From contig NZ_CP019633.1 in assembly GCF_001997385.1 (NCBI RefSeq), positions 1,950,001-1,982,000 of the forward strand: 32,000 nt of DNA, written 5' to 3'. This DNA comes from Sedimentisphaera cyanobacteriorum (GTDB lineage: Bacteria > Planctomycetota > Phycisphaerae > Sedimentisphaerales > Sedimentisphaeraceae). Under the pieces are notes generated by a model. That model did no database searches, had not been told where the DNA came from, and worked only from the letters and a program-made list of their open reading frames with translations. The position numbers and the translations under genes are program-made. Shown piece after piece: positions 538 through 16,550 of the stretch. Positions within the stretch are counted from its first letter, which is position 1. The number at the start of each line of letters is the position of its first letter.

Positions 538-1986
538 TTAATACTTCGCCACAAACCCTTTGTCTGATTCGAGATTTACGAAGAAGTAGCGAAGGGCATC
601 GATGTAATGGTCGTATATCCCATCTTTTTCCGGAAGTTCATCGCCGGTGCATTTAGCGGGGTAATGATAGCTTTCCATCGCCTCAATAAGGTTTACGCAG
701 GAGCGGTCTATAAAGAGCCTTGGCCTTCCTGCTGCATTTCTAATATGCTGCCTTATCATCTCGAGTCCCGGGGCGATTCGGCTGGCCTTCCACCTGAGAT
801 TTATCCCTTGCTTGCGGAATTCGCTTACAACGCTTGTTCCGCTAATCTGAGATGTCTGGGAGCCTGCCGGGTCGCAGAATGTTCCCGCAAGGCTCGCTGT
901 TTTGGGCGTAAGCTTTCGAACATTTTCGCAGTTTACAGCAGCGGTTTTCTGCCTTGCCACATATTCTTTGATCACAAAAACATTCCCCGCGCTGTCCTGC
1001 TCTATCCAGAGGCATACAAACGGATTCACGAAGCCGAAATCTATAGAGCGAAAGAGCCTTCTCGCTGCGCTGAAATCCTGCCTGCATACATTCACGCTCC
1101 TCTCGAACGAGGGGAAAACGCACCTGCTTGCCGAAGGCTTTCTGCACAGCATCTCCGATTCCCAGCTGCTCCTGCTTGCCCTGTTCATCTGAGATACAGC
1201 ATCGTCTATGCGGTAGTAGCCTCCGGCATCTTTTGCAATGCCGCGGCAGTCTTCCCAGAGCGGGCAGCTTGAGCAGGTTCTCTCGGTGCATTTTTCGATT
1301 ACATCCCAGAGATTCCATCTAAATACGGGCATACAGGCTTTTTTTGCCGTGCTTACCGCCTCGGACATTATCCCGTACGGTTCGTGCATTGTGGATGCGG
1401 CCTCCATGGCAGACGTTATGCCATTGCCGGATTTTGTTATATACTGAGCAGCCTGATAAACCTCCGGATCGAAAAGTTCGATCTCATCGCAGCGGAGCTT
1501 ATGTATATGCCTTCCCCGCACGTTCCTTGAAGACTGAGTGAGCACTTCTACACTGCTTGAATTCTCAAGCCTGAGCGAGCTTTTGGTAATCTTTCCGCTG
1601 AGCATATCGGGGAATCCCTCTTCCATAAACCGGGCAGCATATTCATACATCCGCCTTGCCTGTTCCTGCGAGCCTGAGAGGATTTTGATGCTGCAGCCCG
1701 GGCGAAGCACGGCATCCAGCACAGTTAGCACTGCTCCGCAGAGAGTTTTTCCTCCGCCCCTGTTTGCCCACACCAGACAGTCGCCGTTTGGCCTTCCTTC
1801 AAGCTCGGTGGAGTATGCATGCCAGAGATAATCGAAGGGGCTTGCTGCACCCGAGAGGCTTTTATCAGGCAGGGATACCCCGAGAAAAGTTTTTATGTAG
1901 CCCTTGAGCTGTTTGCGGTTTTTTGGAGGCTCAGTTCTAAGCGCAGAGAGAACCGAGCTCAAATGGTTTTCGTTTTGAGTTTTCAT
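538..1986 (-). CDS. Phage terminase large subunit (TerL)
   Basis: The 482-aa ORF has a Walker A-like ANRGGGKT and a Walker B LRCDEIELFD. The C-terminal RNaseH-like nuclease part has acidic motifs SIDFGF, FCDPAG and DHYIDALRY. There is a Cys-rich insert CTERTCSSCPLWEDC. RBS GGAGAAGGA lies upstream of the ATG. Confidence 0.85.
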   Translation of the reverse strand: MKTQNENHLSSVLSALRTEPPKNRKQLKGYIKTFLGVSLPDKSLSGAASPFDYLWHAYSTELEGRPNGDCLVWANRGGGKTLCGAVLTVLDAVLRPGCSIKILSGSQEQARRMYEYAARFMEEGFPDMLSGKITKSSLRLENSSSVEVLTQSSRNVRGRHIHKLRCDEIELFDPEVYQAAQYITKSGNGITSAMEAASTMHEPYGIMSEAVSTAKKACMPVFRWNLWDVIEKCTERTCSSCPLWEDCRGIAKDAGGYYRIDDAVSQMNRASRSSWESEMLCRKPSASRCVFPSFERSVNVCRQDFSAARRLFRSIDFGFVNPFVCLWIEQDSAGNVFVIKEYVARQKTAAVNCENVRKLTPKTASLAGTFCDPAGSQTSQISGTSVVSEFRKQGINLRWKASRIAPGLEMIRQHIRNAAGRPRLFIDRSCVNLIEAMESYHYPAKCTGDELPEKDGIYDHYIDALRYFFVNLESDKGFVAKY

Positions 1987-2023
1987 TTTTCCTTCTCCTC
2001 AACATTTTTTCTATTCAGGGCAG

Positions 2024-2461
2024 CTAACTGCCCAGATTCTCTAACGCTTCGATGCGTTTGATATGCCTTCCGCCTTCAAATTCAGTGCTGAGCCATATAT
2101 CCACGATTTCATAAGCGGCCTCTATCGAGATCATTCTCTCACCTATAGCGAGCATATTTGCGTTGTTGTGCATACGGGAGAGCCTTGCGGTTCTGTTGTT
2201 CCAGCAGAGCGCGCAGCGGATTGCCCTGATCTTGTTGGCGGCTATAGCCTCGCCGTTGCCGCTGCCTCCAAGAACAATGCCTCTATCGCAAATTCCCTCC
2301 GAAACGGCTCTTGCTGCAGGGATTATGAAATCCGGATAACTGCAACACTGTTTAGTGTATGTACCGAAGTCTTTAACAGCCCAGCCGTTTTCACTGAGAT
2401 ACTCTTTGATCTTTTCTTTGTACTTAAAACCTGCGTGGTCTGATGCTAATGCTATTTTCAT
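2024..2461 (-). CDS. rpiB: Ribose-5-phosphate isomerase B (RpiB/LacA/LacB family)
   Basis: The 145-aa ORF starts MKIALASDHAGFKYKEKI and contains GSGNGEAIAANK and a C-terminal GGRHIKRI. These are typical RpiB motifs and length. Confidence 0.9.
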   Translation of the reverse strand: MKIALASDHAGFKYKEKIKEYLSENGWAVKDFGTYTKQCCSYPDFIIPAARAVSEGICDRGIVLGGSGNGEAIAANKIRAIRCALCWNNRTARLSRMHNNANMLAIGERMISIEAAYEIVDIWLSTEFEGGRHIKRIEALENLGS

Positions 2462-2543
2462 AATTCTAACTCATTTTGATGATAACCATTTTACCGTTCT
2501 GAAAAGCGGCGATTATATCGAAAACAAATTTTATTTCACCTTC

Positions 2544-2918
2544 TTATTCCGCCAAAATTTCAAGCAGTTTTGCCTTTTTCTCCTCGCTCAGGGTTGGGCC
2601 AGAAGATTCCTGTCTGCATTGCAGGAGCTCTTTCCTAAGCTGCATAATGTCGATGCAGGCTTTTCTTGCCGTTTCTTCTTTGTCGCAGCATGCAAGGCCG
2701 GCAAGCTTCTCCGCCGCAGTTAGGCCTGCCTTCGCAAGAACGACTTGGGTAAGCAGGTTCACGGTTTCAATCTTATTCAGCATCTCTTCACGGCAGTTCT
2801 CATTTTTCAGACGCTTGTCGAGGGCCTTTATGCTGAGCTGGTTTTTCTCGAAAGCCTCTTCAAGGCTGATTGCAGGTTCGAAAATCTCGGCAATAAAGGT
2901 TTCCATTTTTTTGCTCAT
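2544..2918 (-). CDS. Hypothetical helical protein, possible terminase small subunit (Terminase_2/P27-like pattern)
   Basis: The 124-aa ORF has an ATGA start/stop overlap with the upstream gene. The N-terminal FIAEIF..ISLEEAFEKNQLSIKALDKRLKNENCREEM resembles the HTH region of small terminases (F..eYl..n...Aa..aGys...a...rLlkn..v). Position upstream of TerL is consistent. The call rests on pattern memory only. Confidence 0.4.
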   Translation of the reverse strand: MSKKMETFIAEIFEPAISLEEAFEKNQLSIKALDKRLKNENCREEMLNKIETVNLLTQVVLAKAGLTAAEKLAGLACCDKEETARKACIDIMQLRKELLQCRQESSGPTLSEEKKAKLLEILAE

Positions 2919-3637
2919 TTTTCCGCCTCTCTGATAAGTTTTGGGTTTTTGATAAAAAAGCAGTATTCGGGTTTAAGCTCGAGCTTCTCAACTGCCTTTT
3001 CGAGAATCTCTCCTTCAGCCCTTCGGGATAGAGAGCCGTAGCTCTTGAGAAGATTTACTGCTGCTCTTTGAATCTTTTCTTTCTGTGCGTATGAGGCATT
3101 CTCGAGAGCTTTCTTTCTTTGGGCTTTTGATGTCCGGGCGAGTGGAATCCTGTTTTGAGTGAGCAGTGCTTTCAAACGCATCTTTTTCTCGCTCTCAGCA
3201 GGCCTGCACCTCTTGAAACCCGCAGAGGCAAACAGATTCCCCAGCCTTGCAGATGCGCTCAGCGCCTCAACGCAGCCTGCACTGCAGAATTGTACGGTTT
3301 TGATCAGAAATTTTCTTCCGATGCCCAGCCCGCGGTATTCCGGGAGTATTACAATTCTCGAGACAATCCTGAAATGAGCGTTTACCGCTCTCAGCCTTTG
3401 GCCGCCGGCCTGCGGGAAGCGTTTTAAGAGTTTACCGAAAACAGCGTTCCTGCCGGCACAGTTTGCAGGCGGGTAGGAGAATGTGATAATTCCGGCCTTC
3501 TCGCCTGCAATCCCTCGAAGCAGAAAAGCCTCGCACACCAGCCCGGGACGTGAGGCGCAGTAGTGCCATCTTTCGAAACCGTCATACTCCTCTGCGCCGC
3601 AGCGACGGATAACCAGCTCTGGCAGTTCAATAAGCAT
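2915..3637 (-). CDS. GNAT-fold (acyl-CoA N-acyltransferase-like) protein with an N-terminal ERWHY motif and a basic helical C-terminal extension
   Basis: The 240-aa ORF contains RIVILPEYRGLGIGRKFL, which carries the canonical GNAT motif A (R-x-x-G-x-G). An upstream FERWHYCASRPG...AGIITFSYPP resembles Mom-like/phage GNATs. Strong RBS AAGGAGG. It overlaps the ATPase stop by 11 nt. Confidence 0.6.
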   Translation of the reverse strand: MLIELPELVIRRCGAEEYDGFERWHYCASRPGLVCEAFLLRGIAGEKAGIITFSYPPANCAGRNAVFGKLLKRFPQAGGQRLRAVNAHFRIVSRIVILPEYRGLGIGRKFLIKTVQFCSAGCVEALSASARLGNLFASAGFKRCRPAESEKKMRLKALLTQNRIPLARTSKAQRKKALENASYAQKEKIQRAAVNLLKSYGSLSRRAEGEILEKAVEKLELKPEYCFFIKNPKLIREAEK

Positions 3638-4280
3638 TTGCCCCTCCTTTCCGTCTCACTTCCGGCCTGCCTGTTCGGCTGAGCGTAATTACCACTTCGG
3701 GAATAAGGAATTTTTCAAGCTCTTGACGAGTTGTGCACAGTATAAAGCTCTTTCGGGTTCTCAGGGCTTCAAGACGCAGCTTTGCTGAGAGAAGTTTGGC
3801 CTGAGTGCAGTCGAGACTGCTGCAGAATTCATCGCAGATAATCGTTTGCTCATTCCTGCTAAGCGCAACGGCAAGGCGAAAACGGAACTTCTCCCCAACG
3901 CTGAGAGCGCTGAAAGGCTTAATCATGCTCCAAGCATTTGCAAGGCCTGTTTCTCTAAGTCTTTTCATGCCGCCGGTAAGCGTGGGGAAGCAGTCTATAA
4001 TGCTGCATTGCCTGCTGAATTCGAGGCCATCTAAATCCGTAAAGCTCTCCTCCGGCAGCGAGCTTTTGATGCTCGAAAGCAGGGTGGATTTCCCCGCTCC
4101 GCTCGGCCCTTTAATCAGCACTATCTCCGCCTCAGAGAAGCTGAAATCAACCTTCAGGCGAAACTTCTCGCTCAAGCGGCTTTCGCTTATCCCGAAGGTT
4201 TGCATTATTATCCCGCTTCTCCTGCTGAGTGAGTATCTTCTGGGGATAGACGAATCAATTTGAATCTTTTTTCGTTTCAC
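3627..4280 (-). CDS. Soluble ABC-type ATPase with no transmembrane partner
   Basis: The 217-aa ORF has Walker A GPSGAGKSTLL, a degenerate signature LSVGEKFRFRLAVAL, and Walker B/D-loop IICDEFCSSLD. The GTG start overlaps the TGA of the upstream HTH gene (GTGA). Confidence 0.75.
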   Translation of the reverse strand: MKRKKIQIDSSIPRRYSLSRRSGIIMQTFGISESRLSEKFRLKVDFSFSEAEIVLIKGPSGAGKSTLLSSIKSSLPEESFTDLDGLEFSRQCSIIDCFPTLTGGMKRLRETGLANAWSMIKPFSALSVGEKFRFRLAVALSRNEQTIICDEFCSSLDCTQAKLLSAKLRLEALRTRKSFILCTTRQELEKFLIPEVVITLSRTGRPEVRRKGGANAY

Positions 4281-4666
4281 CGTTCAGCCCCCGCTTTCTT
4301 CTTTTTGTAAATTTCAGCGAGCCTGATATGCTTTCTAACTCTGTATTCTGAGCATCTGCGATTTTTGCTTATCTCGCGAATGCTCATCCCGCGAAGGAAA
4401 TAATCTCTTGCGATCGCCCCGCCCAGCGTGCTGCGGGGGTAGCAGGCGTTGTAGTTTCTGAGCCGTTTGAGCAGTTTTCTGATTCTGCTCGAGATGGTCT
4501 GGCGGCATTTTCTGCGAGATTTTGCCAGATTTGTGATGCTTCTGCCCTCAAGGAAGTACTGCTCTATAAGCTTTCGGTCTTTTCGTTTGAGTCCGCGGGC
4601 AGCTCTGAGCATATCTTCCACTTTCTCACGCATGGCTTGGCGGTGGTCGTAAAGATTTTCATCCAT
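4277..4666 (-). CDS. Small DNA-binding protein with two tandem sigma-70 region 4/LuxR-like HTH repeats
   Basis: The 129-aa ORF has an internal duplication: LIEQYFLEGRSITNLAKSRRKCRQTISSRIRKLL and IARDYFLRGMSIREISKNRRCSEYRVRKHIRLAEIY. RBS GGAGGAG. It is the first gene of the minus-strand operon. Confidence 0.7.
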   Translation of the reverse strand: MDENLYDHRQAMREKVEDMLRAARGLKRKDRKLIEQYFLEGRSITNLAKSRRKCRQTISSRIRKLLKRLRNYNACYPRSTLGGAIARDYFLRGMSIREISKNRRCSEYRVRKHIRLAEIYKKKKAGAER

Positions 4667-4720
4667 TTTTCTCTCTCCTCCGAAAAATTAACATTTATTT
4701 TTACCTCACCCCGTATGTTA

Positions 4721-4766
4721 TTAAGCAAATGCTTAACTTTAAGAAAAAAGTTAGATATTTGCTTAA
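4721..4766. promoter_or_regulatory. Candidate operator: perfect palindrome TTAAGCA-AA-TGCTTAA plus a third TGCTTAA half-site
   Basis: TTAAGCAAATGCTTAA at 4721-4736 is a perfect 7-bp inverted repeat. ATTTGCTTAA recurs at 4757-4766. It lies about 55-100 bp upstream of the HTH gene start, in the AT-rich divergent intergenic region. Confidence 0.3.
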
Positions 4767-4937
4767 TATTATTTCTGCATTAACGCAGTTAAAACTGAAA
4801 TCAGTTACAATATTGTATTTATATGCAAATATTAAAACAAATTTGTAGCATACTTTTTTGGTGAAAATTTTTATTTTATTTAGTAAGTACTTTTATTGCA
4901 GGTGTTTGCAGCGTATTTTGCTTTTTTCGTTTTGTTT

Positions 4938-4952
4938 TGGCACATCAATTGT
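4938..4952 (+). promoter_or_regulatory. Sigma-54 (-24/-12)-like promoter upstream of amtB-glnK
   Basis: TGGCACatcaaTTGT matches TGGCAC-N5-TTGC with correct spacing and one mismatch (final C->T). It lies about 74 nt upstream of the amtB ATG. Nitrogen-regulated amtB-glnK operons are often RpoN dependent. Confidence 0.4.
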
Positions 4953-5025
4953 AACAGCAGGTTTGAAAAGTTAAAAAAGCTCGCTTCCAATTTGTATTTT
5001 TGTCCCTTTTTGAAAGGAGAGTTCT

Positions 5026-6396
5026 ATGAAGAACAAAGTTACAACTGCTGCAATTGTTCTGCTGCTTGCAGGTACGTTATCTGCGGCAGAGCCGGCTGCG
5101 GACGCCGGCGGCCTCGTCGAACTGAAGGCCGAACTGCAGAACAACCTAAACATTGTATGGACGTGCATCGCAGCGTTTCTGGTATTCTTTATGCAGCCGG
5201 GATTTGCGATGGTTGAGGCAGGGTTCACAAGAGCGAAAAATTCAGTGAACATCATAATGAAAAACCTGATGGATTTTTCACTCGGCACCCTCACCTTTTT
5301 CTTTCTCGGATTCGGACTTATGTTCGGGGAAACGAACGGTTTTTTCGGCACATCTGATTTTATGATAGCCGGCTCACAAGGCGACCCTGCAAGCTGGGAC
5401 TGGACGTTCCTGATCTTCCAGACTGTATTCGCAGGCACTGCAGCAACGATTGTATCCGGTGCTATGGCCGGCAGGACTAAGTTCCGCTCTTATATGTTCT
5501 ACAGCGTCCTGATATGCGGACTTATCTATCCGATCTCAGGGTCTTGGGCGTGGGGCGGCCTTGCCAACGGCAGCGGATGGCTCGAAAACCTCGGCAGCGG
5601 CTTCACAGATTTCGCAGGCTCAAGCGTAGTGCATTCTGTAGGCGGATGGCTCGCTCTTGCAGGTGCGATAGTTCTCGGCCCGAGGCTCGGGAAGTACGGC
5701 CCTGACGGAAAGCCCAAGGCTATCCCGGGACACAACATCACCCTCGCTGCCTTAGGCGTTTTTATCCTCTGGTTCGGATGGTTCGGGTTTAACCCGGGCT
5801 CAACCACCATCGGCGACGGCGAGATTGGCAGGGTTGCAGTAACCACGAACCTCTCAGCCGCTATGGGAGCTATCGCAGCTATGGCGACAGTTTGGATGGT
5901 AAACGGCAAGCCCGATGCTTCAATGAGTCTCAACGGGGCTCTGGCGGGGCTGGTAGCAATAACAGCAGGCTGCTACACTGTTACCCCGTTTGGAGCTGTC
6001 ATAATCGGATTATGTGCAGGCGTGATCGTGGTATTCAGCGTGTACTTATTCGACAGGCTCAAGATCGACGACCCAGTTGGTGCGGTGTCCGTACACGGGG
6101 TATGCGGGGCATTCGGCACAATAGCCTGCGGGCTTTTCAATGCTGAGGCAGCCCTCGGACTCGCCGAAACCAGTACCGGCCTTTTCTACGGCGGCGGAGC
6201 AGGCAAGCTCGGTGTTCAGCTCGTGGGAACTGCGGCATACTTCATCTGGGCATTCGGAATTGGATTTTTGATGTTCTCTGCAATTAAGTACACTGTAGGG
6301 CTGAGAGTGAGCAGGGATGAAGAGCTCAAAGGGCTCGATATTACCGAACACGGAAACGAAGCCTATGCAGGGTTCCAGGTCTTCAGCACTACATAA
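5026..6396 (+). CDS. amtB: Ammonium transporter (Amt family) with signal peptide
   Basis: The 456-aa ORF contains FFMQPGFAMVEAGFTRAKN, DFAGSSVVHSVGGW and VHGVCGAFGT (twin-His pore motifs). RBS GAAAGGAG. Confidence 0.95.
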   Translation: MKNKVTTAAIVLLLAGTLSAAEPAADAGGLVELKAELQNNLNIVWTCIAAFLVFFMQPGFAMVEAGFTRAKNSVNIIMKNLMDFSLGTLTFFFLGFGLMFGETNGFFGTSDFMIAGSQGDPASWDWTFLIFQTVFAGTAATIVSGAMAGRTKFRSYMFYSVLICGLIYPISGSWAWGGLANGSGWLENLGSGFTDFAGSSVVHSVGGWLALAGAIVLGPRLGKYGPDGKPKAIPGHNITLAALGVFILWFGWFGFNPGSTTIGDGEIGRVAVTTNLSAAMGAIAAMATVWMVNGKPDASMSLNGALAGLVAITAGCYTVTPFGAVIIGLCAGVIVVFSVYLFDRLKIDDPVGAVSVHGVCGAFGTIACGLFNAEAALGLAETSTGLFYGGGAGKLGVQLVGTAAYFIWAFGIGFLMFSAIKYTVGLRVSRDEELKGLDITEHGNEAYAGFQVFSTT

Positions 6397-6417
6397 GCTT
6401 TAATAAAAGGAGAAATT

Positions 6418-6762
6418 ATGATGAAACTAATAATTGCATACATACAGCCTCACGCACTTGAAGCGGTGAAGGAAGAGCTTTCCAAGAAGGATATCGCAAA
6501 GATGAGCGTTACAAACTCGCTCGGCTGCGGAGCACAAATGGGATATCACGAAAGCTACAGAGGCGTTGAGTTTGATGTGAACCTCTTAAAGAAAGTTCGC
6601 CTCGAGATTGCTGTCAACGATGAGTTTGCAGATGCTGCAGTCGAAGCTATCACAAATGCAGCAAGAACAGGCGAGATCGGAGACGGAAAAATTTTCATAA
6701 TCAACCTCGAGGAATGTATCAGGATAAGAACAGGACAAAAAGGGCCGGAAGCAATTGGGTAA
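6418..6762 (+). CDS. glnK: Nitrogen regulatory protein P-II
   Basis: The 114-aa ORF has a T-loop with the conserved ...ESYRGVEF... (Tyr51 equivalent) and the C-terminal signature [11 protein letters not shown]. It starts 21 nt after amtB, which is the classic amtB-glnK pairing. Confidence 0.95.
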
Positions 6763-6772
6763 GGCCTTTAAC

Positions 6773-6808
6773 GGGCTCCTCTTCTCTGACGGGGGAGCCC
6801 TAAATTTT
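6773..6808 (+). terminator. Rho-independent terminator of amtB-glnK
   Basis: GGGCTCC (6773-6779) pairs with GGAGCCC (6794-6800) and is followed by TAAATTTT. The IS left end starts 3 nt later. Confidence 0.6.
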
Positions 6809-6810
6809 GA

Positions 6811-6830
6811 TAACGTCCCAAAGTTTGTGG
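6811..6830. repeat. IS left terminal inverted repeat
   Basis: TAACGTCCCAAAGTTTGTGG is the exact reverse complement of 8241-8260. Confidence 0.9.
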
Positions 6831-6905
6831 ATAAATTGCAAAAGGCTTGAGAAGTGATATAGTGTTATAGATAAGATAATACTTTTATCACAGGAGTCTC
6901 AAGCC

Positions 6906-8261
6906 ATGCAGAACATTATATCATTAGAACTGATAAGTGCCACATCAGAAAATGGATTTTCTTTAGATGAATTGGTTTTCAGGACCAAAGAGTTATTTGA
7001 AACTGAGGCTATGGCAGGTTTTGTAAGCCTGATTCTTCAGTTGATTGATGAGCGAATATGTATGAACATTGTTCAAGGTAAATCGGATAATACCGGCCAA
7101 TCATGCTGCTGCAATGAGCGGTTTGAATATCATGACAGGTCTCTTCGCCAGTTCAGGACTTCTGTCGGCACAGTCAAGATTAGCTGGCGTCGCTTAAAGT
7201 GCGTTAAATGCGGCAAGACAATAACTCCTTTGAGAGATTTTTTAGGCCTTGCACCCTACCAGTCAAAGACATTGGAGTTGGAAAAGCTGGTTACAGAAAT
7301 TGTAAGCGAACAAAGTTATCGCCGAAGCAGCACTCATCTTGAATCTATCGGCAGCATACCTGTTCCAAAGAGCACTGCCCATCGCTGGGTTGTACAGACC
7401 GACTGCGATCAGATTGATACCGGCACAGATACATTCAGTCTTCTTTTTGCTGACGGCACCGGCTTTAAGCGTCGGCCCGATAAGGACAAACGCATAAGTA
7501 ATCGCGGTGAGCTCAGAGTTGCCTTAGGAGTCACCAGAAGTAGTTCTGTGGTGCCTTTAGGGGCATTCAGCGGTAAAAGCTGGGACGAGATATCCTCGCT
7601 GGTCAAGGGCGAACGTAAGAACAAAGAGCTTGTTGCCGATATGCTTGTAAGCGAGGGCGAAACAGGTCTGGTTAAGAGTCTGGCCAAACTTTGCAATGAT
7701 AGCCAAAGAAGCCATTGGCACCTGGTTCGGGATCTGAATTATACGATGTGGAAGGATGATGCCGGCAAACTTGAACGTAAGCAAAAGCAGAAAGAATTGA
7801 ATGCCGTAATTGGTATTGAAATTCCCGAGGAAGATTTTGAAAAGGTCTGTGATGATGACAAGAAAGATTTGCAAGATGCTGTCAATAGTGCCGAAAGTGA
7901 TCTTCATAAGCTGATAGGCAAACTGCTGGAGAAGGGATATAAAATAGCAGCCGATTACCTGAACCGTTCAGCTAAAAATATGTTCAGCTATGCTCGCCGC
8001 TGGCTGGAGACAGGTATTGTAACTCCGCGGGTTTCCAGCATGATAGAACGGATGATGCGAGAGCTTGGTCGACGCCTTAAACGCATCGCATTTGGCTGGA
8101 GCGAAGAAGGAGCGGCAAAGATGGCCAGAATTATCATTAAAAGATTTACTTCAGAAAATCAATGGGAAAAATACTGGCACGAAAAACTGAGGTTATTGGA
8201 CAATGTAATGCTTGCTCTAAAGACTATAAAAGTACAGAACCCACAAACTTTGGGACGTTAA
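6906..8261 (+). CDS. IS transposase (DDE type, zinc-ribbon N-terminal region)
   Basis: The 451-aa ORF has a Cys cluster CCCNERF...LKCVKCGKT followed by LLFADGTGFKRR (candidate first catalytic Asp). The stop codon lies at the very end of the right IR (8259-8261). Family assignment is from memory of UPF0236/ISKra4-like proteins and is not verified. Confidence 0.75.
   Translation: MQNIISLELISATSENGFSLDELVFRTKELFETEAMAGFVSLILQLIDERICMNIVQGKSDNTGQSCCCNERFEYHDRSLRQFRTSVGTVKISWRRLKCVKCGKTITPLRDFLGLAPYQSKTLELEKLVTEIVSEQSYRRSSTHLESIGSIPVPKSTAHRWVVQTDCDQIDTGTDTFSLLFADGTGFKRRPDKDKRISNRGELRVALGVTRSSSVVPLGAFSGKSWDEISSLVKGERKNKELVADMLVSEGETGLVKSLAKLCNDSQRSHWHLVRDLNYTMWKDDAGKLERKQKQKELNAVIGIEIPEEDFEKVCDDDKKDLQDAVNSAESDLHKLIGKLLEKGYKIAADYLNRSAKNMFSYARRWLETGIVTPRVSSMIERMMRELGRRLKRIAFGWSEEGAAKMARIIIKRFTSENQWEKYWHEKLRLLDNVMLALKTIKVQNPQTLGR
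8241..8260. repeat. IS right terminal inverted repeat
   Basis: CCACAAACTTTGGGACGTTA is the exact reverse complement of 6811-6830. Confidence 0.9.
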
Positions 8262-8391
8262 TAATTTTTTTGTTAGATTTCTGCTTTCCTGTTAAAACTC
8301 GTGATTAAAGGGCTTGGGGCAGATGAATTGTTTTTCGGGGCGTTTTATGAGCATATACAGGCGGGGTGCGAGAATCTCCGCGCATAAAAAA

Positions 8392-8477
<86 letters not shown>

Positions 8478-8563
8478 AAAAGAGAATAGGGAATTTTAAT
8501 GTTTTAGCTGCTTATATCAAGAATATTTGCTGAAAAAATTCAATTCTTTTTGATTTTTTCGCT

Positions 8564-9469: not shown

Positions 9470-9648
9470 AAACGCCTCCCTCTGCGGTTTTTTCTATTGC
9501 GATTAAATTATCTCAAATCACACCGTAGAAGTCAAGAAAAATTGATTTCTGCAAGAACCTTTTCAGAAGGCTTAGCCTGTTTTGGCATACTGCCGGCAGT
9601 GTATAACTTACAAATTCCCCGTTGGTAAAGATGTTTTCCGGAATGGCA

Positions 9649-9679
9649 TAAAAAAAAGGCAGGCAAATTAATGCCTGCC
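9649..9679 (-). terminator. Rho-independent terminator ending the head-gene operon
   Basis: The minus strand reads GGCAGGCA-TTAATT-TGCCTGCC followed by TTTTTTTTT. The stem is at 9658-9679 and the U-tract at 9649-9657. It starts 13 nt after the stop of the lipoprotein gene. Confidence 0.65.
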
Positions 9680-9691
9680 CGCTGCCGGTTA

Positions 9692-10273
9692 TCAGCCGGC
9701 CTCGTCTTTCACCTGCCGCACGATCTGTTTTGTGGATTTGCTTTGCCCTACCTGGGCCTCGCTGAACGGTATTTTCGTATGCGGCTGGTTTTTCTTCATC
9801 ACCTCATTTCCTTTCACGATTTCCTCAAGCGCCTTGAGTTTCTTGCGAACTACAGAAGCCGCAGCGGCAGCCTTTGCAGCACCTGCCCCGCCGAAAATCC
9901 CGAAAAGAGCTATAACAATGTTAACCAGCGGATCGAAGAGGCTGTAGCCTGCGGTTCCGGCGGATGCCTGCAAACCAGCCTCCTCTGCTATCTTGCCGGC
10001 CATATTCTTTTTCAGTGAATCATAGTTTGGGGCATTTGCCGGCTGCTTTGGCTTTCCCATATATTCAGCCACAGCGCTGTGCTGCTTTGCTGCAAGCCCA
10101 GCAAGGGCCTTGATTCTCTCACTGCCTTCAGCCTCCGCCTGTTTTTCAGCAAGACCGATTGTCCGGCCGAGCAGATGGGCGTTTTGCTTCTGCACCTCGC
10201 CCGGGGCAAGCCTGAAAGCCCCGCACCCGCCTGCAAACAGGGCAAGCAGGATAATACAAATACAATTTTTCAT
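9692..10273 (-). CDS. Putative lipoprotein with an additional internal/C-proximal TM helix (spanin-like topology)
   Basis: The 193-aa ORF has an N-terminal MKNCICIILLALFAGGC, read as a signal peptide plus a lipobox-like AGGC. A second hydrophobic segment is LVNIVIALFGIFGGAGAAKAAAAA. Its start overlaps the upstream stop (ATGA). Confidence 0.55.
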   Translation of the reverse strand: MKNCICIILLALFAGGCGAFRLAPGEVQKQNAHLLGRTIGLAEKQAEAEGSERIKALAGLAAKQHSAVAEYMGKPKQPANAPNYDSLKKNMAGKIAEEAGLQASAGTAGYSLFDPLVNIVIALFGIFGGAGAAKAAAAASVVRKKLKALEEIVKGNEVMKKNQPHTKIPFSEAQVGQSKSTKQIVRQVKDEAG

Positions 10274-10533
10274 TTCCTCATCTCCTTCTGCATCTCTATC
10301 TGATTCTCTAAAACAGCAATTTCTTTTCCCTGCTCGGCCTGCCTTTTGCTCAAAACATCGAATTTGCCTGCCGAACTCTGCTGCTGGAGCTTTATCATCT
10401 CAACATCTTTCTGCAAAGAAGTGATTCTGGTTTGCAGGTCGCTCCAGCTGCCGATTATAAGCCCTCCGATAACAATAAGCTGGCAGGCCGTACGCACTGC
10501 CGAAAATACACTTGCCATAGACATAATCCTCAC
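10270..10533 (-). CDS. Small type-II membrane protein with a coiled-coil ectodomain (i-spanin/Rz-like topology)
   Basis: The 87-aa ORF has an N-terminal TM segment ACQLIVIGGLIIGSW followed by heptad-rich LQTRITSLQKDVEMIKLQQQ...IAVLENQIEMQKEMRK. The GTG start overlaps the stop of the upstream gene. An alternative ATG lies 9 nt downstream. Confidence 0.5.
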   Translation of the reverse strand: MRIMSMASVFSAVRTACQLIVIGGLIIGSWSDLQTRITSLQKDVEMIKLQQQSSAGKFDVLSKRQAEQGKEIAVLENQIEMQKEMRK

Positions 10534-11186
10534 CCCCTTTCCAGCTCGCCGCAGGCGAAGCAGTATTTCCGCTGCCTGCCTTCGGCATTCCTCATTTCAA
10601 CTATAAGAGCCTCTTTGCTCCTCTCGAACAGCTCTTCATACATCTCCCGCTTATCTGAGAGCAGAGCCTCATCCGCATCGGGATTGCCGCATTGAGCGCT
10701 GAGCATAAGCTGGGCGAGAGCTCCGGCGGCCGCGCAGTTTGCTGTGAGCCTGCTGTCGAGAATATCCTCCGCGCCGAACTCGGCATCGCTTACAGCAGGC
10801 CTTATACCCATCAGCGAGCAGAGCTCCAGAGAAACCGCCTCAATCACCGCGCTGAAGCTTGCAATCAGCAGATTCAGAGAGCCTATGCTGAACAGTTCTC
10901 CCGCCTGAAGTCCCTGTGCTGCGGGCGGGGCGATTGTGAGCTGGTTAGATGCATCACAGCTCAAAACGCTGAAATAGCCTTCAAATCCGCTTTCCGGCTC
11001 ATTCACGTAAACTGCGAAACCTTCCTGCACGCCTGCGGCAATGAAATCCACGCCGCCGCAAGTTAGCGAGCTGCCGGATATGCTCGCCCCGCCTCCGCGT
11101 ACAACGATAAACTGCTCGAGTCCTTCTGCCTTGAATATCCTGCTCTCAAAAGCTAAAAGGTCGCTGTCTTTGCAAAGCATTGTCAT
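10530..11186 (-). CDS. Hypothetical phage head-associated protein (position suggests a head-completion/adaptor role)
   Basis: The 218-aa ORF lies directly downstream of the capsid gene, with its own RBS (AAAGGA). I recognise no motif. The functional call is positional only. Confidence 0.5.
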   Translation of the reverse strand: MTMLCKDSDLLAFESRIFKAEGLEQFIVVRGGGASISGSSLTCGGVDFIAAGVQEGFAVYVNEPESGFEGYFSVLSCDASNQLTIAPPAAQGLQAGELFSIGSLNLLIASFSAVIEAVSLELCSLMGIRPAVSDAEFGAEDILDSRLTANCAAAGALAQLMLSAQCGNPDADEALLSDKREMYEELFERSKEALIVEMRNAEGRQRKYCFACGELERG

Positions 11187-11203
11187 TTTGTCTGTCCTTT
11201 CTC

Positions 11204-11237
11204 AAAAAGCCGCCTCGAGGTTTTGCCCCGAAGCGGC
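11204..11237 (-). terminator. Imperfect (probably leaky) terminator between the capsid gene and downstream genes
   Basis: The minus strand reads GCCGCTTCG...CGAGGCGGC, a 9-bp stem with one mismatch, followed by TTTTT. Placement after a major capsid gene is common in phages. Confidence 0.35.
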
Positions 11238-11247
11238 CGGTTAATTT

Positions 11248-12396
11248 TTATACAAGCCCGGTTATGATTCCGTGTGCCTGCTGGTTCTTGAGCTCGAGGG
11301 TGTATTCCCCTATAAGCTCGCCTCGTTCATAATCCCCACTGGATGCAAGCGGCTTGAAGTGCATACTTCTGCCCGTTAGAGGCATCACGCTTACCCGCGA
11401 GGAATCAAGCAGGAGGATTGTACCGCTGGGGACCCATCTGGAGAGAATTACCCTGCACACGCCGAAATCGCTTTCGTACATCTGAACCCCGCTGCGGACT
11501 CTGGTGTCTTCAGGGCCGTACCAGCGCGAGCCTTCGAGGAAGGAGTTTATCCTTCGCTTCTGAGCCCCGCCGGCAACGATCATATCAACATTCCCGCAGC
11601 TTTTCTCCCAAATCTGCCTCAGTGCCCAGTTGAGCATATTCTCTGTTAGCACATCTCCATCCGGAACGTCCCCTGAGCCCGCCTGGAAGATGTTTGTCTG
11701 AATGTGGCGGATTATTCCGCGCATCGTCCTTGTTTGCGAAGCGGTTCCTGCCGGGGAAGACTGCGCCATAGCACCGTTTATAACGGTATTCTCCAAATCC
11801 CTGAGCAGTTCACGCAGACGCATCTGCTTTTGATAGTCCATCTCTTCGGCGATACCTATGTGGTCTGCTGCCATATTAGACCCGCTCACCTCAACACCTG
11901 CGGTGAAGATTTGAGTCCAGTTGCCCTGTCTTGCCCTGGCGGTAAAGCGGCTTTCGGGAAAGTCTTCGCCTTCCACTGCCGAAGGGCCGATGATATTGAT
12001 CCTCTGGCCGTCTTCTATAGGCTCGGCGGATGTTCCGCCGTAGCCTCGGGTAACGTTGAGCGTGCTGCCAGTTTTGCCGATAACAAGCATTACCTCAGAA
12101 GAACCTTCAGGCTGGATCTGATCGTTTATGCGAAATTTGCTTATATCGGCCACATCAAATTCAGGACAGCTTCCGGGCATGGTAATATCCTGATCGTTTA
12201 TCACATCGCTGTTTGCAAGCAGGCTGTCTTCAAGCCATTCGTGATATGTACTGCGTGCTTCTCTCTGCGGGTCTCCGATTTCGCTTAGAAGAGGTGTTTC
12301 ATAAGGGGAAACAATCCCAATAACATCAGACACGTCTTCGGCTATTTCCGGCAGCTCCGCTCCAGCTGTAAAAGTTGCTTTTCCTGTAAAACTCAT
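11248..12396 (-). CDS. Major capsid protein, HK97 fold, DUF5309/SU10-like family
   Basis: The 382-aa ORF has an N-terminal ...AEDVSDVIGIVSPYETPLLSEIG....ARSTYHEWLEDSL.... This matches the family hallmark (eDLsD.I..IsP.dTPf.s.ig.....t.hEW..DsL). RBS AAGGAG. A scaffold gene lies immediately upstream. Confidence 0.8.
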   Translation of the reverse strand: MSFTGKATFTAGAELPEIAEDVSDVIGIVSPYETPLLSEIGDPQREARSTYHEWLEDSLLANSDVINDQDITMPGSCPEFDVADISKFRINDQIQPEGSSEVMLVIGKTGSTLNVTRGYGGTSAEPIEDGQRINIIGPSAVEGEDFPESRFTARARQGNWTQIFTAGVEVSGSNMAADHIGIAEEMDYQKQMRLRELLRDLENTVINGAMAQSSPAGTASQTRTMRGIIRHIQTNIFQAGSGDVPDGDVLTENMLNWALRQIWEKSCGNVDMIVAGGAQKRRINSFLEGSRWYGPEDTRVRSGVQMYESDFGVCRVILSRWVPSGTILLLDSSRVSVMPLTGRSMHFKPLASSGDYERGELIGEYTLELKNQQAHGIITGLV

Positions 12397-12412
12397 AATT
12401 TACTCCTTCATA

Positions 12413-12814
12413 TTAATAATTTGTGTTTTCAGTTTTTTCCCGGCGGACTCTCATATATTCGCTAACCTCTGCGGGTCTGCCGGTCTGAGCTGCTTTTCGG
12501 GCAGCTCCCTCAAGTTGGTTCTCGGTTTGCTCGGCTGCCTGAGCGATATTGCTGCGAAGCTCAGCAGGCCTGCTTCGGAACAGATAGGCCTTTTTCTCCT
12601 TGAGCCCGCTTACAAGCTCCTCTGGCTTCTTTTCGGGATTCTGTTTCTGCTTCTCTCTGCAAAGGGCCAAGCCTGCATCCAGATCGATAATCCCGCTTTC
12701 AGCGAGGGATTTGGCGGCTTCTTTTTCGAACTTAAGCCGCTCATTTTCAGCCTTGAGCTCTTCAGCGGGCAAGCTGCCGCCTTCAGGCGGAATGTTCTGA
12801 TTTTTCTTTTCCAT
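12413..12814 (-). CDS. Putative phage scaffolding protein
   Basis: The 133-aa ORF is acidic/basic, helical and coiled-coil (ELKAENERLKFEKEAAKSLAE...). It sits between the portal and capsid genes, and no prohead protease is present. RBS AAGGAG. Confidence 0.6.
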   Translation of the reverse strand: MEKKNQNIPPEGGSLPAEELKAENERLKFEKEAAKSLAESGIIDLDAGLALCREKQKQNPEKKPEELVSGLKEKKAYLFRSRPAELRSNIAQAAEQTENQLEGAARKAAQTGRPAEVSEYMRVRREKTENTNY

Positions 12815-12862
12815 GATAAATCTCCTTCTAAACTTAAATTAATATATTTCGAGGCCTTCGAT

Positions 12863-14248
12863 TCAGCCTGTTTCTTCTTTCGGATAAGCCCCAAATTCGC
12901 TGAAGACCTCCTCCTCCGGAAGCCCTGCCTCTTTTTTGAGAATAGCTTCATTGAGCTTATCTGTAGTGTTTTCGGGCAGTGGATCGGCAAACACGACCTC
13001 CACTTTCCTTTCTTCCCGACTCGTCTTAAAAATCCCCGCAGAATCTAACGCAAGCAGAAGCTTTCGGCAGAGCTGCCTTATTCCGTCTCCGTAAGCAGCC
13101 TTTCTGCGTTCGTTTTTGCTGAGGATCCCAATAAGCGTCATTTTGAGTGCAACTGCGCTGGAGAGATTGCCGATTTTTCCTCGCAATACCCCGGCAGCCA
13201 GCGGGGTTACTCCGCTTATCTTGTCCATCGCTGCACGTATCTGGTCTATATGGCTCTCCTCTCCCGGGCATGCGCTGTCTCCGCCGAACTGCTCAATGCT
13301 TGCGTCCTGATTCCATGTGTACCAGATTCGCCCAGGTACCACCTCTTTTGCCCCCGGGTCTTCAAGGCCTTTAGCCAGATAGAGCTTGAAAGACTGCATC
13401 GTTACGCGGAAAGCCCTGTCGCTAAGGCGGGTGTTCAGCTCGTCCTGAAGGGGTATCAGCGGGGCAACATCGCTCGCCCCTTCGTAGCTCTGCGGACGGC
13501 TTATATTCTGTATGTGAACTACTGGCAGCTCAGGTATCCGGCAGGGCAGCTCGCTTACCAGCCGGCCGTCGTGAAACCGCTGGAAAAGCTCAGGGCTGAA
13601 AAGCTCTGTTACCTGAATCTGTTTGCGGCTAAGCCCGCCTATGCCGGAATCTCCTGCCTGATTTATCTCCATTCGGAAATTCTGCAGATAACAGTTGATT
13701 CGGCCTGCATCACCTTCCTCAAGGACGGGAAGAGCCCTCTCAGCAGGTACAAGATCCAGCTTCACGTCCCTCGCTTCGGCATTTTCGCTGAAAAGCCCTT
13801 CAATGCGCAGAAGGATATCAACAAAGCCGTACACGCTGCCGAGAAGGGCTAGGCTCATAAAGAATTCACTGCCTCCGTTTGCCTCAAAAACTTCATTCAA
13901 AAGCGATTCAATCTTTCGAGCCTTGTCTCTGGTTTTCGAAAGGCTTTTGATTCGAATCTGCCGGCCGAAGAGAAAATCGTTCATCGAATTTATCCGCCAG
14001 CCGATATCGTTCTCGATTACAACTTCCTTGCGGCCTATCCCCTTCTCTGCGCTGCCGCGGATTCGTTCAGGCAGGCCTTGTATTTGTGCCTGCTGCATCT
14101 GGCCGGCCGAGCAGTTGTATCTGCAGTTGCTGTAATATTCGTAGAGCTTGCGGAATTCTCTCGCCCTTGCCGGCTGGTATTTCTCTATCAGCCAGCGGAC
14201 AAAACCTTCATCCAGCCTGAAGCCGAGCTTTGAAAAATCAAATTCCAT
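12863..14248 (-). CDS. Phage portal protein (SPP1 gp6-like pattern)
   Basis: The 461-aa ORF has an N-terminal ...FRKLYEYYSN... (the l..YY.g motif of portal N-termini). Size and position upstream of scaffold and capsid fit. RBS GGAGAAGGA. Confidence 0.7.
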   Translation of the reverse strand: MEFDFSKLGFRLDEGFVRWLIEKYQPARAREFRKLYEYYSNCRYNCSAGQMQQAQIQGLPERIRGSAEKGIGRKEVVIENDIGWRINSMNDFLFGRQIRIKSLSKTRDKARKIESLLNEVFEANGGSEFFMSLALLGSVYGFVDILLRIEGLFSENAEARDVKLDLVPAERALPVLEEGDAGRINCYLQNFRMEINQAGDSGIGGLSRKQIQVTELFSPELFQRFHDGRLVSELPCRIPELPVVHIQNISRPQSYEGASDVAPLIPLQDELNTRLSDRAFRVTMQSFKLYLAKGLEDPGAKEVVPGRIWYTWNQDASIEQFGGDSACPGEESHIDQIRAAMDKISGVTPLAAGVLRGKIGNLSSAVALKMTLIGILSKNERRKAAYGDGIRQLCRKLLLALDSAGIFKTSREERKVEVVFADPLPENTTDKLNEAILKKEAGLPEEEVFSEFGAYPKEETG

Positions 14249-14973
14249 TCTTCCTTCTCCTAAAAGTATTCTCTAAAACAAGGCTGAAATAATTAGCCCT
14301 CTCACCCTTAGAGCGAATGTTAAGGTTTTGCGCGGAAAATTTTTGAATTGAGCAGTTTCAGAGGGTTTGTAAATGCCTGAAAAGCAAAGGCTAAGAAAAA
14401 TCCAGTCTTTTTTAATTTCATCTCACTTTTGCCCGCCCTCAATTTAAGAAAAAGCAAAACAAATAACTTTTTACATTTCGTTTTAGCCTTTTATAAATCT
14501 TTCCGTTAAAGCATTACACATTATTCAGAACAAAGATATTCTGCGACAAAGCTGTTAAAGCTATCGCTCAAATCAGCAGGATTTTATCATCTCTCAACTT
14601 GCGTTTGCGCAGTTTGACGCAGCCGCTAAAAGACGGGTCAAACTGTAAAAGGTTAGAAAAACCTTCTTCAATCGGCCTTATCTGTTTACAAAGCGATTTT
14701 TTTTCTTAGAATTTTCCAGTTGCTTTTAGGGTGAACTCATCTTGTTACTGTATCTCGGCAGGAATAAAATATCCTGTTGTGCAGGATGAAGCCAAGGCTA
14801 ACAGGGCGAATTAAATAAGTGAATGTATTGTTTCATAATTCCACGGACAAGATCTTATTGCCCAAGTTATAAAAATAGTTACAAGAACAAAAAGCCGGCG
14901 TGTTTTTGTTTTTAGTAATGAGAATCAATGCTTATTTCTGTATTGATTGAAAATAAAATGTTTAATGTTTTAA

Positions 14974-16332
<1,359 letters not shown>

Positions 16333-16365
16333 TCATATTTCCAGCTAATCTGTAAAAGGTTTCCA

Positions 16366-16395
16366 AACGGCAGAGAAAAACTCTGCCGTTTTTTA
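16366..16395 (+). terminator. Rho-independent terminator of gdhA
   Basis: AACGGCAGAG-AAAAA-CTCTGCCGTT is followed by TTTTT. Confidence 0.75.
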
Positions 16396-16550
16396 TGCCC
16401 TGAATTAACCACCCAGCCGAGGCGTTTACAATTCCAGAAAACTGCTGATAAAATTTCTCAAAATCCAGCTTGCCGTCCGAATTCAGAATATTTTTTCACA
16501 TCTCATTTGAATTTTACCGATTGTTTAATACAATTTGCGCTTCTGCTTAA

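Follow-up and report, generated by a model that had tools for sequence, protein, structure and literature searches.

Structural modules of tailed phages have been domesticated repeatedly in a lineage-specific manner, as in BaGTA of Bartonella, VSH-1 of Brachyspira, Dd1 of Desulfovibrio and VTA of Methanococcus, to which the element considered here would add a further case; to our knowledge, all of these described examples are tailed and none has the capsid family of this element. RcGTA of Rhodobacter capsulatus (Alphaproteobacteria), the loci of which are dispersed in the chromosome, can be likened to the element in that both comprise a phage-derived head and packaging cluster without integrase and replication genes and both appear to be vertically inherited over an order-level clade, under purifying selection and from dispersed chromosomal loci. 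However, the capsid of RcGTA is of the HK97 kind and comes with a protease, and its siphovirus tail includes a tape measure, whereas the element, residing in another phylum and evidently of independent origin, combines an SU10/DUF5309 capsid with a scaffold; its relatives carry a short podovirus-like tail block, and Sedimentisphaera cyanobacteriorum carries none. The ABC ATPase and the GNAT-like gene of its packaging block also distinguish it from RcGTA.

The cf-PICIs resemble the element in having their own capsid, portal and terminase genes and no tails (which is true of S. cyanobacteriorum, but not of 53 long-form relatives), but they are mobile, possess an integrase, alpA, replication genes and att sites, and spread horizontally, while the element lacks all of these and occupies fixed, vertically inherited sites. 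Phage SU10 shares with it the capsid family (SU10_MCP, PF17236), the order of portal, scaffold and capsid genes and the dependence on a scaffold. The portal of the element, in contrast, is of the SPP1 type and not SU10_portal. The window (the whole 32-kb stretch of the S. cyanobacteriorum chromosome that was analyzed) yielded no match to SU10_adaptor or nozzle families, and the element is a non-replicative part of the chromosome that different species have conserved.

We regard the two blocks of phage-derived genes in the window, with a probability of about 0.6, as an old, vertically inherited and domesticated GTA-like element (a "viriform") in a short, tail-less form. Its genes are intact, evolve under purifying selection, occupy orthologous sites and are not accompanied by functions of integration, replication or lysogeny. 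No published description was found in the literature, and the element looks like a previously undescribed one.

Gene content of the head and packaging blocks

The phage-derived genes recognized in the initial annotation were all confirmed at their positions on the minus strand and at full length. The head operon (14248 to 9692) begins with the portal gene (12863..14248, 461 aa; Pfam SPP1_portal, E 5e-17; PHROG portal, E 6e-23), the product of which is 88% identical in S. salicampi and which is intact in 66/66 relatives when gene copies not at a contig edge are considered. Between it and the capsid gene lies p133 (12413..12814, 133 aa), a scaffold-like protein, orthologues of which match Phage_scaffold and PHROG scaffolding families; it is charged, has no hydrophobic segment, is probably helical as judged by its sequence, and shows a dN/dS of 0.10 against S. 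salicampi. The major capsid protein of the SU10_MCP/DUF5309 type (11248..12396, 382 aa; Pfam E 1.6e-86) has over 4,500 homologues, and the 120 best ones, 382–392 aa long, are 61–69% identical to it; its gene is intact in 80/80 loci. The following gene, p218 (10530..11186), universal in this post-capsid position, was found in 82 loci with a constant product length of about 219 aa and is intact in 74 of 76. Its AF2 model (pLDDT 93) combines a helical bundle and a beta-barrel inserted into it and has no global match in the PDB upon structure comparison; the best structural matches, which are weak (TM 0.25–0.34), are the N-terminal parts of phage tail fibers and tailspikes and one head-to-tail adaptor. 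Judging by this model, p218 is probably a component of the portal vertex or a fiber anchor.

The operon is completed by p87 (10270..10533) and p193 (9692..10273). By hydropathy and sequence, the former has an N-terminal transmembrane helix and a coiled coil, an i-spanin-like topology, and its only PHROG match is a weak one to holin; its homologues lie near the operon end in both long and short forms (dN/dS 0.084). The latter, the last head-operon gene in all forms, encodes a lipoprotein of o-/u-spanin-like topology with a signal peptide, a lipobox (G16-C17, invariant in 19 orthologues) and an internal second hydrophobic segment at about residues 108–135. These features suggest a spanin-like membrane pair conserved across the family. 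Consequently, the initial annotation stands as far as integrase, replication, tail and endolysin genes are concerned, since none of these families matched any window ORF in the Pfam, PHROG and NCBIfam scans, but its extension to all lysis genes was too strong. Neither a recombinase other than the IS transposase, nor a baseplate or fiber gene, nor a primase/rep module or AlpA-type regulator is present in the window. An intrinsic terminator (9657..9680, minus strand; a 9-bp GC-rich stem followed by T8) begins 12 nt past the p193 stop codon, and on the opposite side of the operon a putative promoter/leader region (14249..14440, minus strand) of about 190 nt adjoins the portal gene upstream; S. 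cyanobacteriorum shares it in conserved form with the two S. salicampi strains, although the flanking genes differ.

The packaging operon was initially proposed to end at 2918, but it extends to 4666 (4666 to 538, minus strand), as the three additional genes, sig129, p217 and p240, keep their synteny with TerL even in distantly related genomes. The product of sig129 (4277..4666) contains two sigma70-region-4/Q-like HTH domains, namely Sigma70_r4 (residues 25–71) and Phage_antitermQ (residues 86–120), both above the Pfam cutoffs, along with a below-cutoff NCBIfam match to the sigma70-ECF superfamily. By its domains, it is a regulator-like protein and a candidate for the dedicated regulator of the element. 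In S. salicampi, in Limihaloglobus and in the long-form relatives, the packaging block starts with this gene. Next, p217 (3627..4280) encodes a complete, soluble ABC-type ATPase, the Walker A region (residues 43–75) and the signature/Walker B region (118–191) of which match many ABC nucleotide-binding-domain models; homologues of 214–217 aa occupy the same position in Limihaloglobus, MAG bin49 and S. salicampi, and the phage counterpart is fused to the next gene (phrog_11143). The p240 protein (2915..3637) has a GNAT-like acetyltransferase fold according to sub-threshold GNAT matches in Pfam and to a profile of 15 orthologues, which matches PDB acetyltransferases at the acetyl-CoA motif (E 0.008–0.02) and in which P99, R102 and G105 are invariant.

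The small helical protein p124 (2544..2918) had been called TerS-like. It matched nothing in Pfam, PHROG, NCBIfam or PDB; its orthologues (124–165 aa, in 8 relatives) share a conserved N-terminal "LSKKQ..." segment, and tblastn detected no homologue in Limihaloglobus. Its position upstream of TerL and its size are the only features that point to a possible small terminase. Downstream, the host housekeeping gene rpiB (2024..2461; LacAB_rpiB, E 2e-55) precedes TerL, the large terminase (538..1986, 482 aa; Terminase_6C and PHROG TerL families), in which Walker A (GGGKT), Walker B (CDE), the nuclease residues D316/D372/D459/D463 and a four-cysteine cluster are invariant. TerL is 88% identical in S. 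salicampi. The location of rpiB between the accessory genes and TerL recurs in three distant lineages (Sedimentisphaera, Limihaloglobus and MAG bin49), which indicates an old, fixed chromosomal location.

As noticed initially, several genes overlap by 4 nt at their starts and stops, and the ORF coordinates place such overlaps at sig129/p217, p240/p124, p218/p87 and p87/p193. The separation of the blocks by amtB, glnK, an IS (6802-8269, bounded by 29-nt terminal inverted repeats), a tRNA-Leu gene (8391-8478) and an FHA gene was also corroborated.

Conservation, descent and selection

At least 581 GTDB species genomes, assigned to Sedimentisphaerales and to other Phycisphaerae by the taxon labels of the NCBI records, contain the capsid gene, and among the best 80 loci the identity is 58–67%. 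Loci L001, L028 and L051 share chromosomal flanks at 80–93% nucleotide identity, i.e., they occupy orthologous positions. In comparison with S. salicampi (dS 0.6–1.1), all 12 phage-derived genes yielded dN/dS values of 0.08–0.17 with no change in length in any of the 12; the values for TerL, portal and capsid (0.092, 0.105 and 0.087), for which the initial annotation had proposed this calculation together with a comparison of synteny, point to purifying selection. Within the independent short-form pair L028/L051, dN/dS ranged from 0.05 to 0.19. Scans of the relatives' loci as well as of the window revealed no integrase or replication genes accompanying the cluster; a primase/HTH_17 island adjoins the head block of S. 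salicampi and was seen in no other locus. Apparently, Sedimentisphaerales and related Phycisphaerae have received the gene set by vertical descent at fixed orthologous sites, as suggested by its distribution and flanks.

In line with the earlier comparison to dispersed loci, a distance of 0.69 Mb separates the head block from the packaging block in S. salicampi, and in MAG bin49 this distance is 1.1 Mb, yet pairwise identities of the capsid protein and TerL correlate with r=0.92 over 7 genomes, in some of which the blocks are far apart. Thus, the two blocks co-evolve and are functionally kept together even at distances of 0.7–1.1 Mb.

Proposed function and alternative explanations

By analogy with the known systems, we infer a GTA-type function, that is, packaging and transfer of host DNA. 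The tandem-HTH protein sig129, which would be analogous to GafA of RcGTA as a small regulator with sigma-like HTH domains, would activate the packaging operon and probably that of the head genes too; this gene and the conserved upstream regions are the only pointers to host-controlled production. Procapsids would form from the portal, the scaffold and the SU10-type capsid protein, and TerL, given that its ATPase and nuclease motifs are intact, would fill them with DNA, most likely that of the host, by a headful mechanism, probably together with p124 and the ABC-ATPase/GNAT pair. p218 may bind at the portal vertex, and the p87/p193 membrane pair may help the particles cross or break the envelope.

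Delivery of DNA is a feature of GTAs for which no counterpart was found in the window, which has no tail, baseplate or fiber gene. In 53 of the 71 classifiable relatives p218 is followed by a six-gene tail-like block with a hypervariable beta-helix region, which would be receptor-binding; the block would add a short tail. The short form, devoid of this block, is represented by S. cyanobacteriorum and the other 18 relatives and persists under purifying selection in several lineages. With the block missing, the particles of S. cyanobacteriorum would be tail-less, unless an attachment device is borrowed from elsewhere. As far as we know, every characterized GTA has a tail, and it is not obvious how a particle without one would deliver DNA; this counts against the GTA reading.

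The suggestion of the initial annotation that tail genes may be found elsewhere in the genome would make the element a complete tailed GTA, its tail and lysis genes lying at other S. cyanobacteriorum loci, the tail module perhaps as a non-homologous or relocated one. Dispersal of the head and packaging blocks themselves in relatives and the precedent of RcGTA speak for it, but the tail-like block, wherever present in genome loci, lies in cis between p218 and p87, its 262-aa gene was preceded by the capsid gene in all metagenome loci that extended far enough upstream (30/30), and in none of these was the block seen apart from the capsid gene, which disfavors tails at another site. Furthermore, L028 and L051 lack exactly the 4.6-kb block at an otherwise orthologous locus, and no tail-block homologue occurs anywhere in the window; we therefore consider such relocation quite improbable. 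An ordinary defective prophage remnant that has so far escaped decay can be given hardly any weight: remnants typically do show phage-derived genes that lack an integrase and adjoin an IS and tRNA genes, but 12/12 intact genes with dN/dS near 0.1 at this divergence, the same set intact across at least 80 sampled species, orthologous positions and co-evolution of unlinked blocks contradict it. A prophage, whether functional or decaying, was rejected on the grounds of the host-gene flanks (gdh, Dabb, amtB-glnK), the absence of broken ORFs in the window and the lengths kept in S. salicampi; nor does a full prophage extend beyond the blocks, which are bounded on their outer sides by gdh and Dabb. 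As the same set is inherited by hundreds of planctomycete species under purifying selection, it represents, in our reading, a domesticated element rather than a dying prophage, and every test run favored domestication over decay.

It is conceivable, although unlikely, that the element is a chromosomally fixed, satellite-like capsid-forming element (similar to cf-PICIs) or a phage-interference system. Infection by a helper phage would then induce the capsids and terminase of the cell, which would package DNA into heads that acquire phage tails, or would divert phage components and lower the phage yield. The persistence of head and packaging genes under selection without tail genes, the absence of a tail block standing alone and the resemblance, by weak matches, of the p218 fold to fiber/adaptor docking domains of tailed phages are consistent with this. 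The element itself is set apart from phages, which favors the GTA-like reading. For the capsid protein, no relation to GenBank phages above 32% identity was found, this being the value for the closest one, and most IMG/VR phage capsids are at most 40% identical. Two phage contigs, however, carry a full-length extra copy of the element capsid gene (56–69% identity, nested in the family tree) and have complete structural modules of their own. In both, the extra copy lies among early genes (RecT/exonuclease/methylase), and the copies keep 132–134 of the 145 invariant residues. This agrees with the satellite-like reading, in which such a copy might serve the phage to counter the element or to exploit it. 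As these two contigs show, the capsid family is found outside chromosomes as well, and this weighs against the GTA reading: gene transfer may not be the sole role of the element, and an interaction with phages may be part of it. On the other hand, the PICI-defining integrase, AlpA-type regulator, primase/replication genes and att sites are absent, inheritance appears to be vertical at fixed sites, no match to known defense families was obtained, and the relatives' own tail-like block in cis would be needless for a tail stealer.

A more speculative reading, which we put forward tentatively and with rather low confidence, is that the capsid and terminase machine without a tail is maintained by selection in its own right in several lineages of Phycisphaerae, that of S. 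cyanobacteriorum included, its DNA-filled heads being released by p87/p193 or armed with phage parts, in an arms race with phages that bear the capsid copy as an early decoy. If true, this would be a new phage-derived cellular organelle or defense, neither a classical GTA nor a satellite.

Gene content of the two operons

The capsid protein encoded at the locus matches L21SP3_01589 at every residue, a protein of the 2.95-Mb chromosome of Sedimentisphaera cyanobacteriorum (Planctomycetota, class Phycisphaerae). The phage-related genes of the locus form two operons on the minus strand. The head operon comprises the genes of the portal protein (12863-14248), a scaffold-like protein p133 (12413-12814), the capsid protein of the SU10_MCP/DUF5309 family (11248-12396), p218 (10530-11186), p87 (10270-10533) and p193 (9692-10273), and is followed by a strong intrinsic terminator (9657-9680). 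The packaging operon (4666->538) is read in the order sig129, p217, p240, p124, rpiB and TerL. Its first gene, sig129, encodes a protein with two sigma70-region-4/Q-like HTH domains, p217 is a complete soluble ABC-type ATPase and p240 is GNAT-like, while the housekeeping gene rpiB (2024-2461) lies inside the block, with the accessory genes on one side and TerL on the other. The two operons are separated by the amtB-glnK pair (5026-6762, plus strand), an insertion sequence (IS; 6802-8269) with 29-nt terminal inverted repeats, a tRNA-Leu gene and an FHA gene; farther out, one flank is formed by Dabb and the other by gdh (14986-16332) and tRNA-Arg, all of them host genes. This gene map bears out the initial annotation, which described intact head and packaging genes, with two corrections: the packaging block extends some 1.7 kb further than was stated there, and the head operon, the genes of which are all present, ends in a pair of membrane proteins. 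Family scans of the window gave no match to integrases, replication proteins, repressors, tail proteins or endolysins, and an exact-sequence look-up of TerL in a contig index returned no match.

The IS is intact, encodes a 451-aa transposase of the DUF6431/UPF0236 type and is situated directly after the glnK terminator; no homologue of it was found in any fetched locus. The region upstream of sig129 (4700-4760, minus strand) includes the near-palindrome TTAAGCA-TT-TGCTTAA, which is preceded by a further TTAAGCAAAT copy at a distance of 33 nt. The leaders of both operons (4700-4760 and 14290-14330, minus strand) contain an 'AACAT...GGGTGAG' segment about 40-60 nt before the start codon, kept in three of the four upstream regions compared with S. 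salicampi. The resemblance is weak and not convincing as a regulatory motif common to both operons; judging by sequence, this segment and the near-palindrome are possible operator or promoter elements.

Conservation, descent and selection

Homologues of the capsid protein number in the thousands, and the best 120 are 61-69% identical to it and nearly all 384 aa long, the named ones among these 120 belonging mainly to Phycisphaerae/Sedimentisphaerales MAGs; the nearest capsid protein among GenBank phages is only 32% identical. When one genome per GTDB species was scanned, a relative was found in at least 581 genomes. In the best 80 of these loci (58-67% capsid identity) the capsid gene was intact in every case (80/80), as was the portal gene in 66/66 (cases cut by a contig end left out), and p218 was intact in 74 of 76. 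TerL is similarly conserved, sharing 88% identity with its S. salicampi counterpart and 50-53% with those of Limihaloglobus and numerous MAGs; the Walker A, Walker B and nuclease residues, as well as a cluster of four cysteines, are invariant.

Orthologous loci, the presence of which in relatives had been proposed as a check on domestication, were recovered, and in three related species (L001/L033, L028 and L051) the head cluster lies between the same host genes, with flanks of 80-93% nucleotide identity. The sister species S. salicampi shares all twelve genes, not one of which differs in length, and their dN/dS ratios between the two species are 0.08-0.17 at dS 0.6-1.1 (Nei-Gojobori), i.e., purifying and not near 1; this range matches the value of the embedded rpiB (0.07) and is slightly above those of amtB, glnK and Dabb (about 0.05). 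The head and packaging blocks are located at 2.77 Mb and 2.08 Mb, respectively, on the S. salicampi chromosome and 1.1 Mb apart on the complete MAG chromosome bin49, and despite this distance the divergence of capsid and TerL is tightly correlated (r=0.92 over seven genomes). In Sedimentisphaera (window 2024-2461), Limihaloglobus (L004:6407-6835) and bin49 (L131:5345-5782) alike, rpiB separates TerL from the accessory packaging genes; therefore, its association with the packaging block is ancient, which points to an old, fixed insertion site.

Taken together, the results on conservation, descent and selection rule out a deletion-riddled prophage remnant, one of the two readings initially considered, and vertical descent with purifying selection excludes a decaying remnant and a normal prophage alike; none of the outcomes named beforehand as refuting domestication was observed. 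The other reading, domestication, is supported by the conservation, the orthologous sites, the dN/dS values and the co-divergence of unlinked blocks.

The head block of S. salicampi occupies a rearrangement-prone site, the neighbourhood of which is wholly unlike that in S. cyanobacteriorum. In one strain an island of HTH_17, 56-aa, 248-aa and primase-helicase genes is found directly upstream of the portal gene (L086:3960-7060), and in the other strain two IS110 copies and four small genes stand between the island and the portal gene (L087:1-7333). Since it is absent from every other locus, the island was rejected as a part of the element and is considered an unrelated neighbour. In bin49 a gene of an HTH_3/Peptidase_M78 (ImmA/IrrE-type) regulator, with no counterpart in the window, immediately follows TerL (L131:11588-12700).

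Long and short forms of the head operon

Mapping the proteins of the window and of one reference relative onto all loci revealed two architectures. In the long form (53 of the 71 classifiable loci) six extra genes lie between p218 and p87: those of a 122-aa protein, a 260-aa protein, a very conserved 262-aa protein (72-77% identity, 1,828 homologues), a hypervariable stretch often coding for beta-helix proteins, one with an N-terminus matching a phage neck protein, and the genes of a 227-aa and an approximately 609-aa protein. The hypervariable stretch measures 1.3-3.9 kb (e.g., L060:14008-17876, L063:13904-15175), and both flanking genes, encoding the 262-aa and 227-aa proteins, are highly conserved, a pattern typical of exchangeable receptor-binding proteins. 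By its sequence organization the whole block looks like a short tail with such proteins, its components being identifiable neither by sequence nor by a usable model: searching PDB sequences with profiles of the 262-aa and 609-aa families produced no significant match, PHROG scans of 18 members of the latter were empty, and the AF2 model of the 262-aa protein was discarded because of its poor quality (pLDDT 49).

The short form (portal, scaffold, capsid, p218, p87, lipoprotein) is represented by the window and 18 sampled genomes and appears at no fewer than four places on the capsid tree. At the orthologous locus, L028 and L051 differ from L001 by an exact 4.6-kb absence of the block. The dN/dS values of the L028/L051 pair are 0.05-0.19, and those of the Sedimentisphaera pair are likewise low; hence, the tail-less version is maintained and is not decaying. 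As for the suggestion that tail genes could be encoded elsewhere in the genome, a metagenome scan for the 262-aa family placed the capsid gene upstream in 30/30 loci with enough sequence, and a Sedimentisphaera copy was neither shown nor excluded among the best 120 of the 1,828 matches; because the tail block was seen as a separate locus in none of these 30 cases, its presence elsewhere in the chromosome is unlikely. In L001 the usual 262-aa protein is only 146 aa long (13080-13520) and the usual ~609-aa protein is 355 aa long, some 245 aa being missing internally (15403-16470). In L028 and L051, the nearest relatives of L001, the whole block is gone. This lineage may be in the course of losing the block, its head genes remaining intact.

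The position of the packaging operon also varies. In several short-form genomes (L010, L066, L082) TerL lies a few kb downstream of the head operon on the same strand, and the window is arranged likewise, with amtB-glnK, the IS, tRNA-Leu and the FHA gene in between. The long-form loci L077 and L078 carry the packaging operon upstream of the portal gene and divergent from it, and in most other genomes it is not within 10 kb of the head operon. The packaging blocks of the long form contain an additional ParB_N/methylase-like gene.

Nature of the element and of its proteins

Judged from its genes, the element would work most like a gene transfer agent (GTA): it has no mobility or replication genes, is vertically inherited under purifying selection and is dispersed over separate loci; the delivery device of GTAs is lacking in the S. 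cyanobacteriorum window, from which the tail block is absent. Capsid-forming satellites of the cf-PICI kind are similar in encoding heads and packaging without a tail, but differ in possessing the integrase, replication genes and mobility by which they are defined. A rival, satellite-like or defence-like reading comes from phages that carry a second capsid gene of the host-element type among their early genes. Two IMG/VR contigs contain full-length homologues (L088:7023-8183 and L089:5970-7124), which share 56-69% identity with the chromosomal family, retain 132-134 of 145 invariant residues and fall within the family tree. The 41-kb contig of L088 has its own complete structural module with a P22-type portal, an SU10_adaptor-like protein and a Phage_capsid_3 capsid protein, which belongs to a different Pfam family and is unrelated to the extra copy; the latter is flanked by RecT/PD-(D/E)XK exonuclease and a cytosine methylase, and TerL of the contig lies about 9 kb downstream of it. 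The copy in L089 is placed in the same way, beside a replication initiator and a methyltransferase. Such placement suggests interference with, or exploitation of, the host capsid system, and the satellite-like or defence-like reading is retained as a rival for this reason; the copy could be a decoy or a counter-measure against the host element, which would represent a phage conflict with a domesticated capsid that has no earlier description.

On the genomic evidence, the description that fits best is that of a GTA-like viriform of Sedimentisphaerales/Phycisphaerae, new and of independent derivation. The variant carried by S. cyanobacteriorum is tail-less and is itself kept under selection; for steps other than capsid assembly and DNA packaging, we infer the mechanism. 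We know of only a handful of independent domestications of phages into GTAs, and of none in Planctomycetota. With its occurrence in hundreds of species and its different capsid lineage, the cluster would be a further case, one that is order-wide, in anaerobic, polysaccharide-degrading bacteria of sediments and mats. Close relatives with and without the tail-like block, both keeping head and packaging genes under selection, constitute a natural experiment, thus making testable both the selection for GTA-like elements and the need for a tail, and cultured strains exist (S. cyanobacteriorum, S. salicampi, Limihaloglobus). The searchable literature on Planctomycetota, Phycisphaerae and DUF5309 yielded no account of an element of this kind; among the works covered were a review of the phylum from 2025 and a genomic survey of the class from 2024. 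An extrachromosomal 'chronic phage' was reported in the Phycisphaerae strain ZRK32, and hexagonal particles without tails, seen once nitrate or ammonium had been added, were attributed to it (PMC10945688); being a different, extrachromosomal sequence, it was rejected as an explanation of the locus. The nitrogen-assimilation genes amtB-glnK (5026-6762) and gdh (14986-16332) flank the blocks, and any link of the ZRK32 particles to such a cluster is pure speculation.

Of the proteins encoded, p87 begins with a transmembrane helix and continues as a coiled coil, and p193 combines a lipoprotein signal, the Gly-Cys lipobox of which is invariant, with a second hydrophobic segment. In gene order, overlap and predicted topology they resemble an i-spanin/o-spanin (or u-spanin) pair and would presumably act in release; neither an endolysin nor a clear holin is encoded beside them, and p193 gave no significant match in the profile search of PDB sequences. 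The model of p218 (pLDDT 93) is a helical bundle with an inserted beta-barrel, with neither a global structural match in PDB nor a significant one in the profile search of PDB sequences. Its nearest neighbours in a viral structure library are one head-to-tail adaptor and the N-terminal regions by which tail fibres and tailspikes bind to the particle (E ~1e-4 to 1e-3, TM 0.25-0.34), so p218 might tentatively be regarded as a portal-vertex or fibre-anchor component.

The p240 protein keeps the GNAT acetyl-CoA motif and p217 has a full ABC nucleotide-binding domain, for which PADLOC gave generic ABC/SMC-type ATPase similarity and no defence system. The two are fused in phages (phrog_11143), which suggested one gene split by a frameshift; this was rejected, since p217 (214-217 aa) and p240 (240-246 aa) are separate in S. 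salicampi, Limihaloglobus and bin49, as in the window (4/4 genomes with gene calls). The designation of p124 as TerS-like is supported only by its position, size and N-terminal 'LSKKQ' segment; homology to known small terminases was not detectable, and the profile search of PDB sequences gave no significant match. Between the ATPase and nuclease domains of TerL, at residues 225-239 and beyond (window 1270-1314), the cysteines C233, C238, C241 and C247 form a CxxxxCxxCxxxxxC cluster that is invariant in 15/15 aligned homologues and looks like a zinc-binding insert, which to our knowledge is not typical of characterised large terminases.
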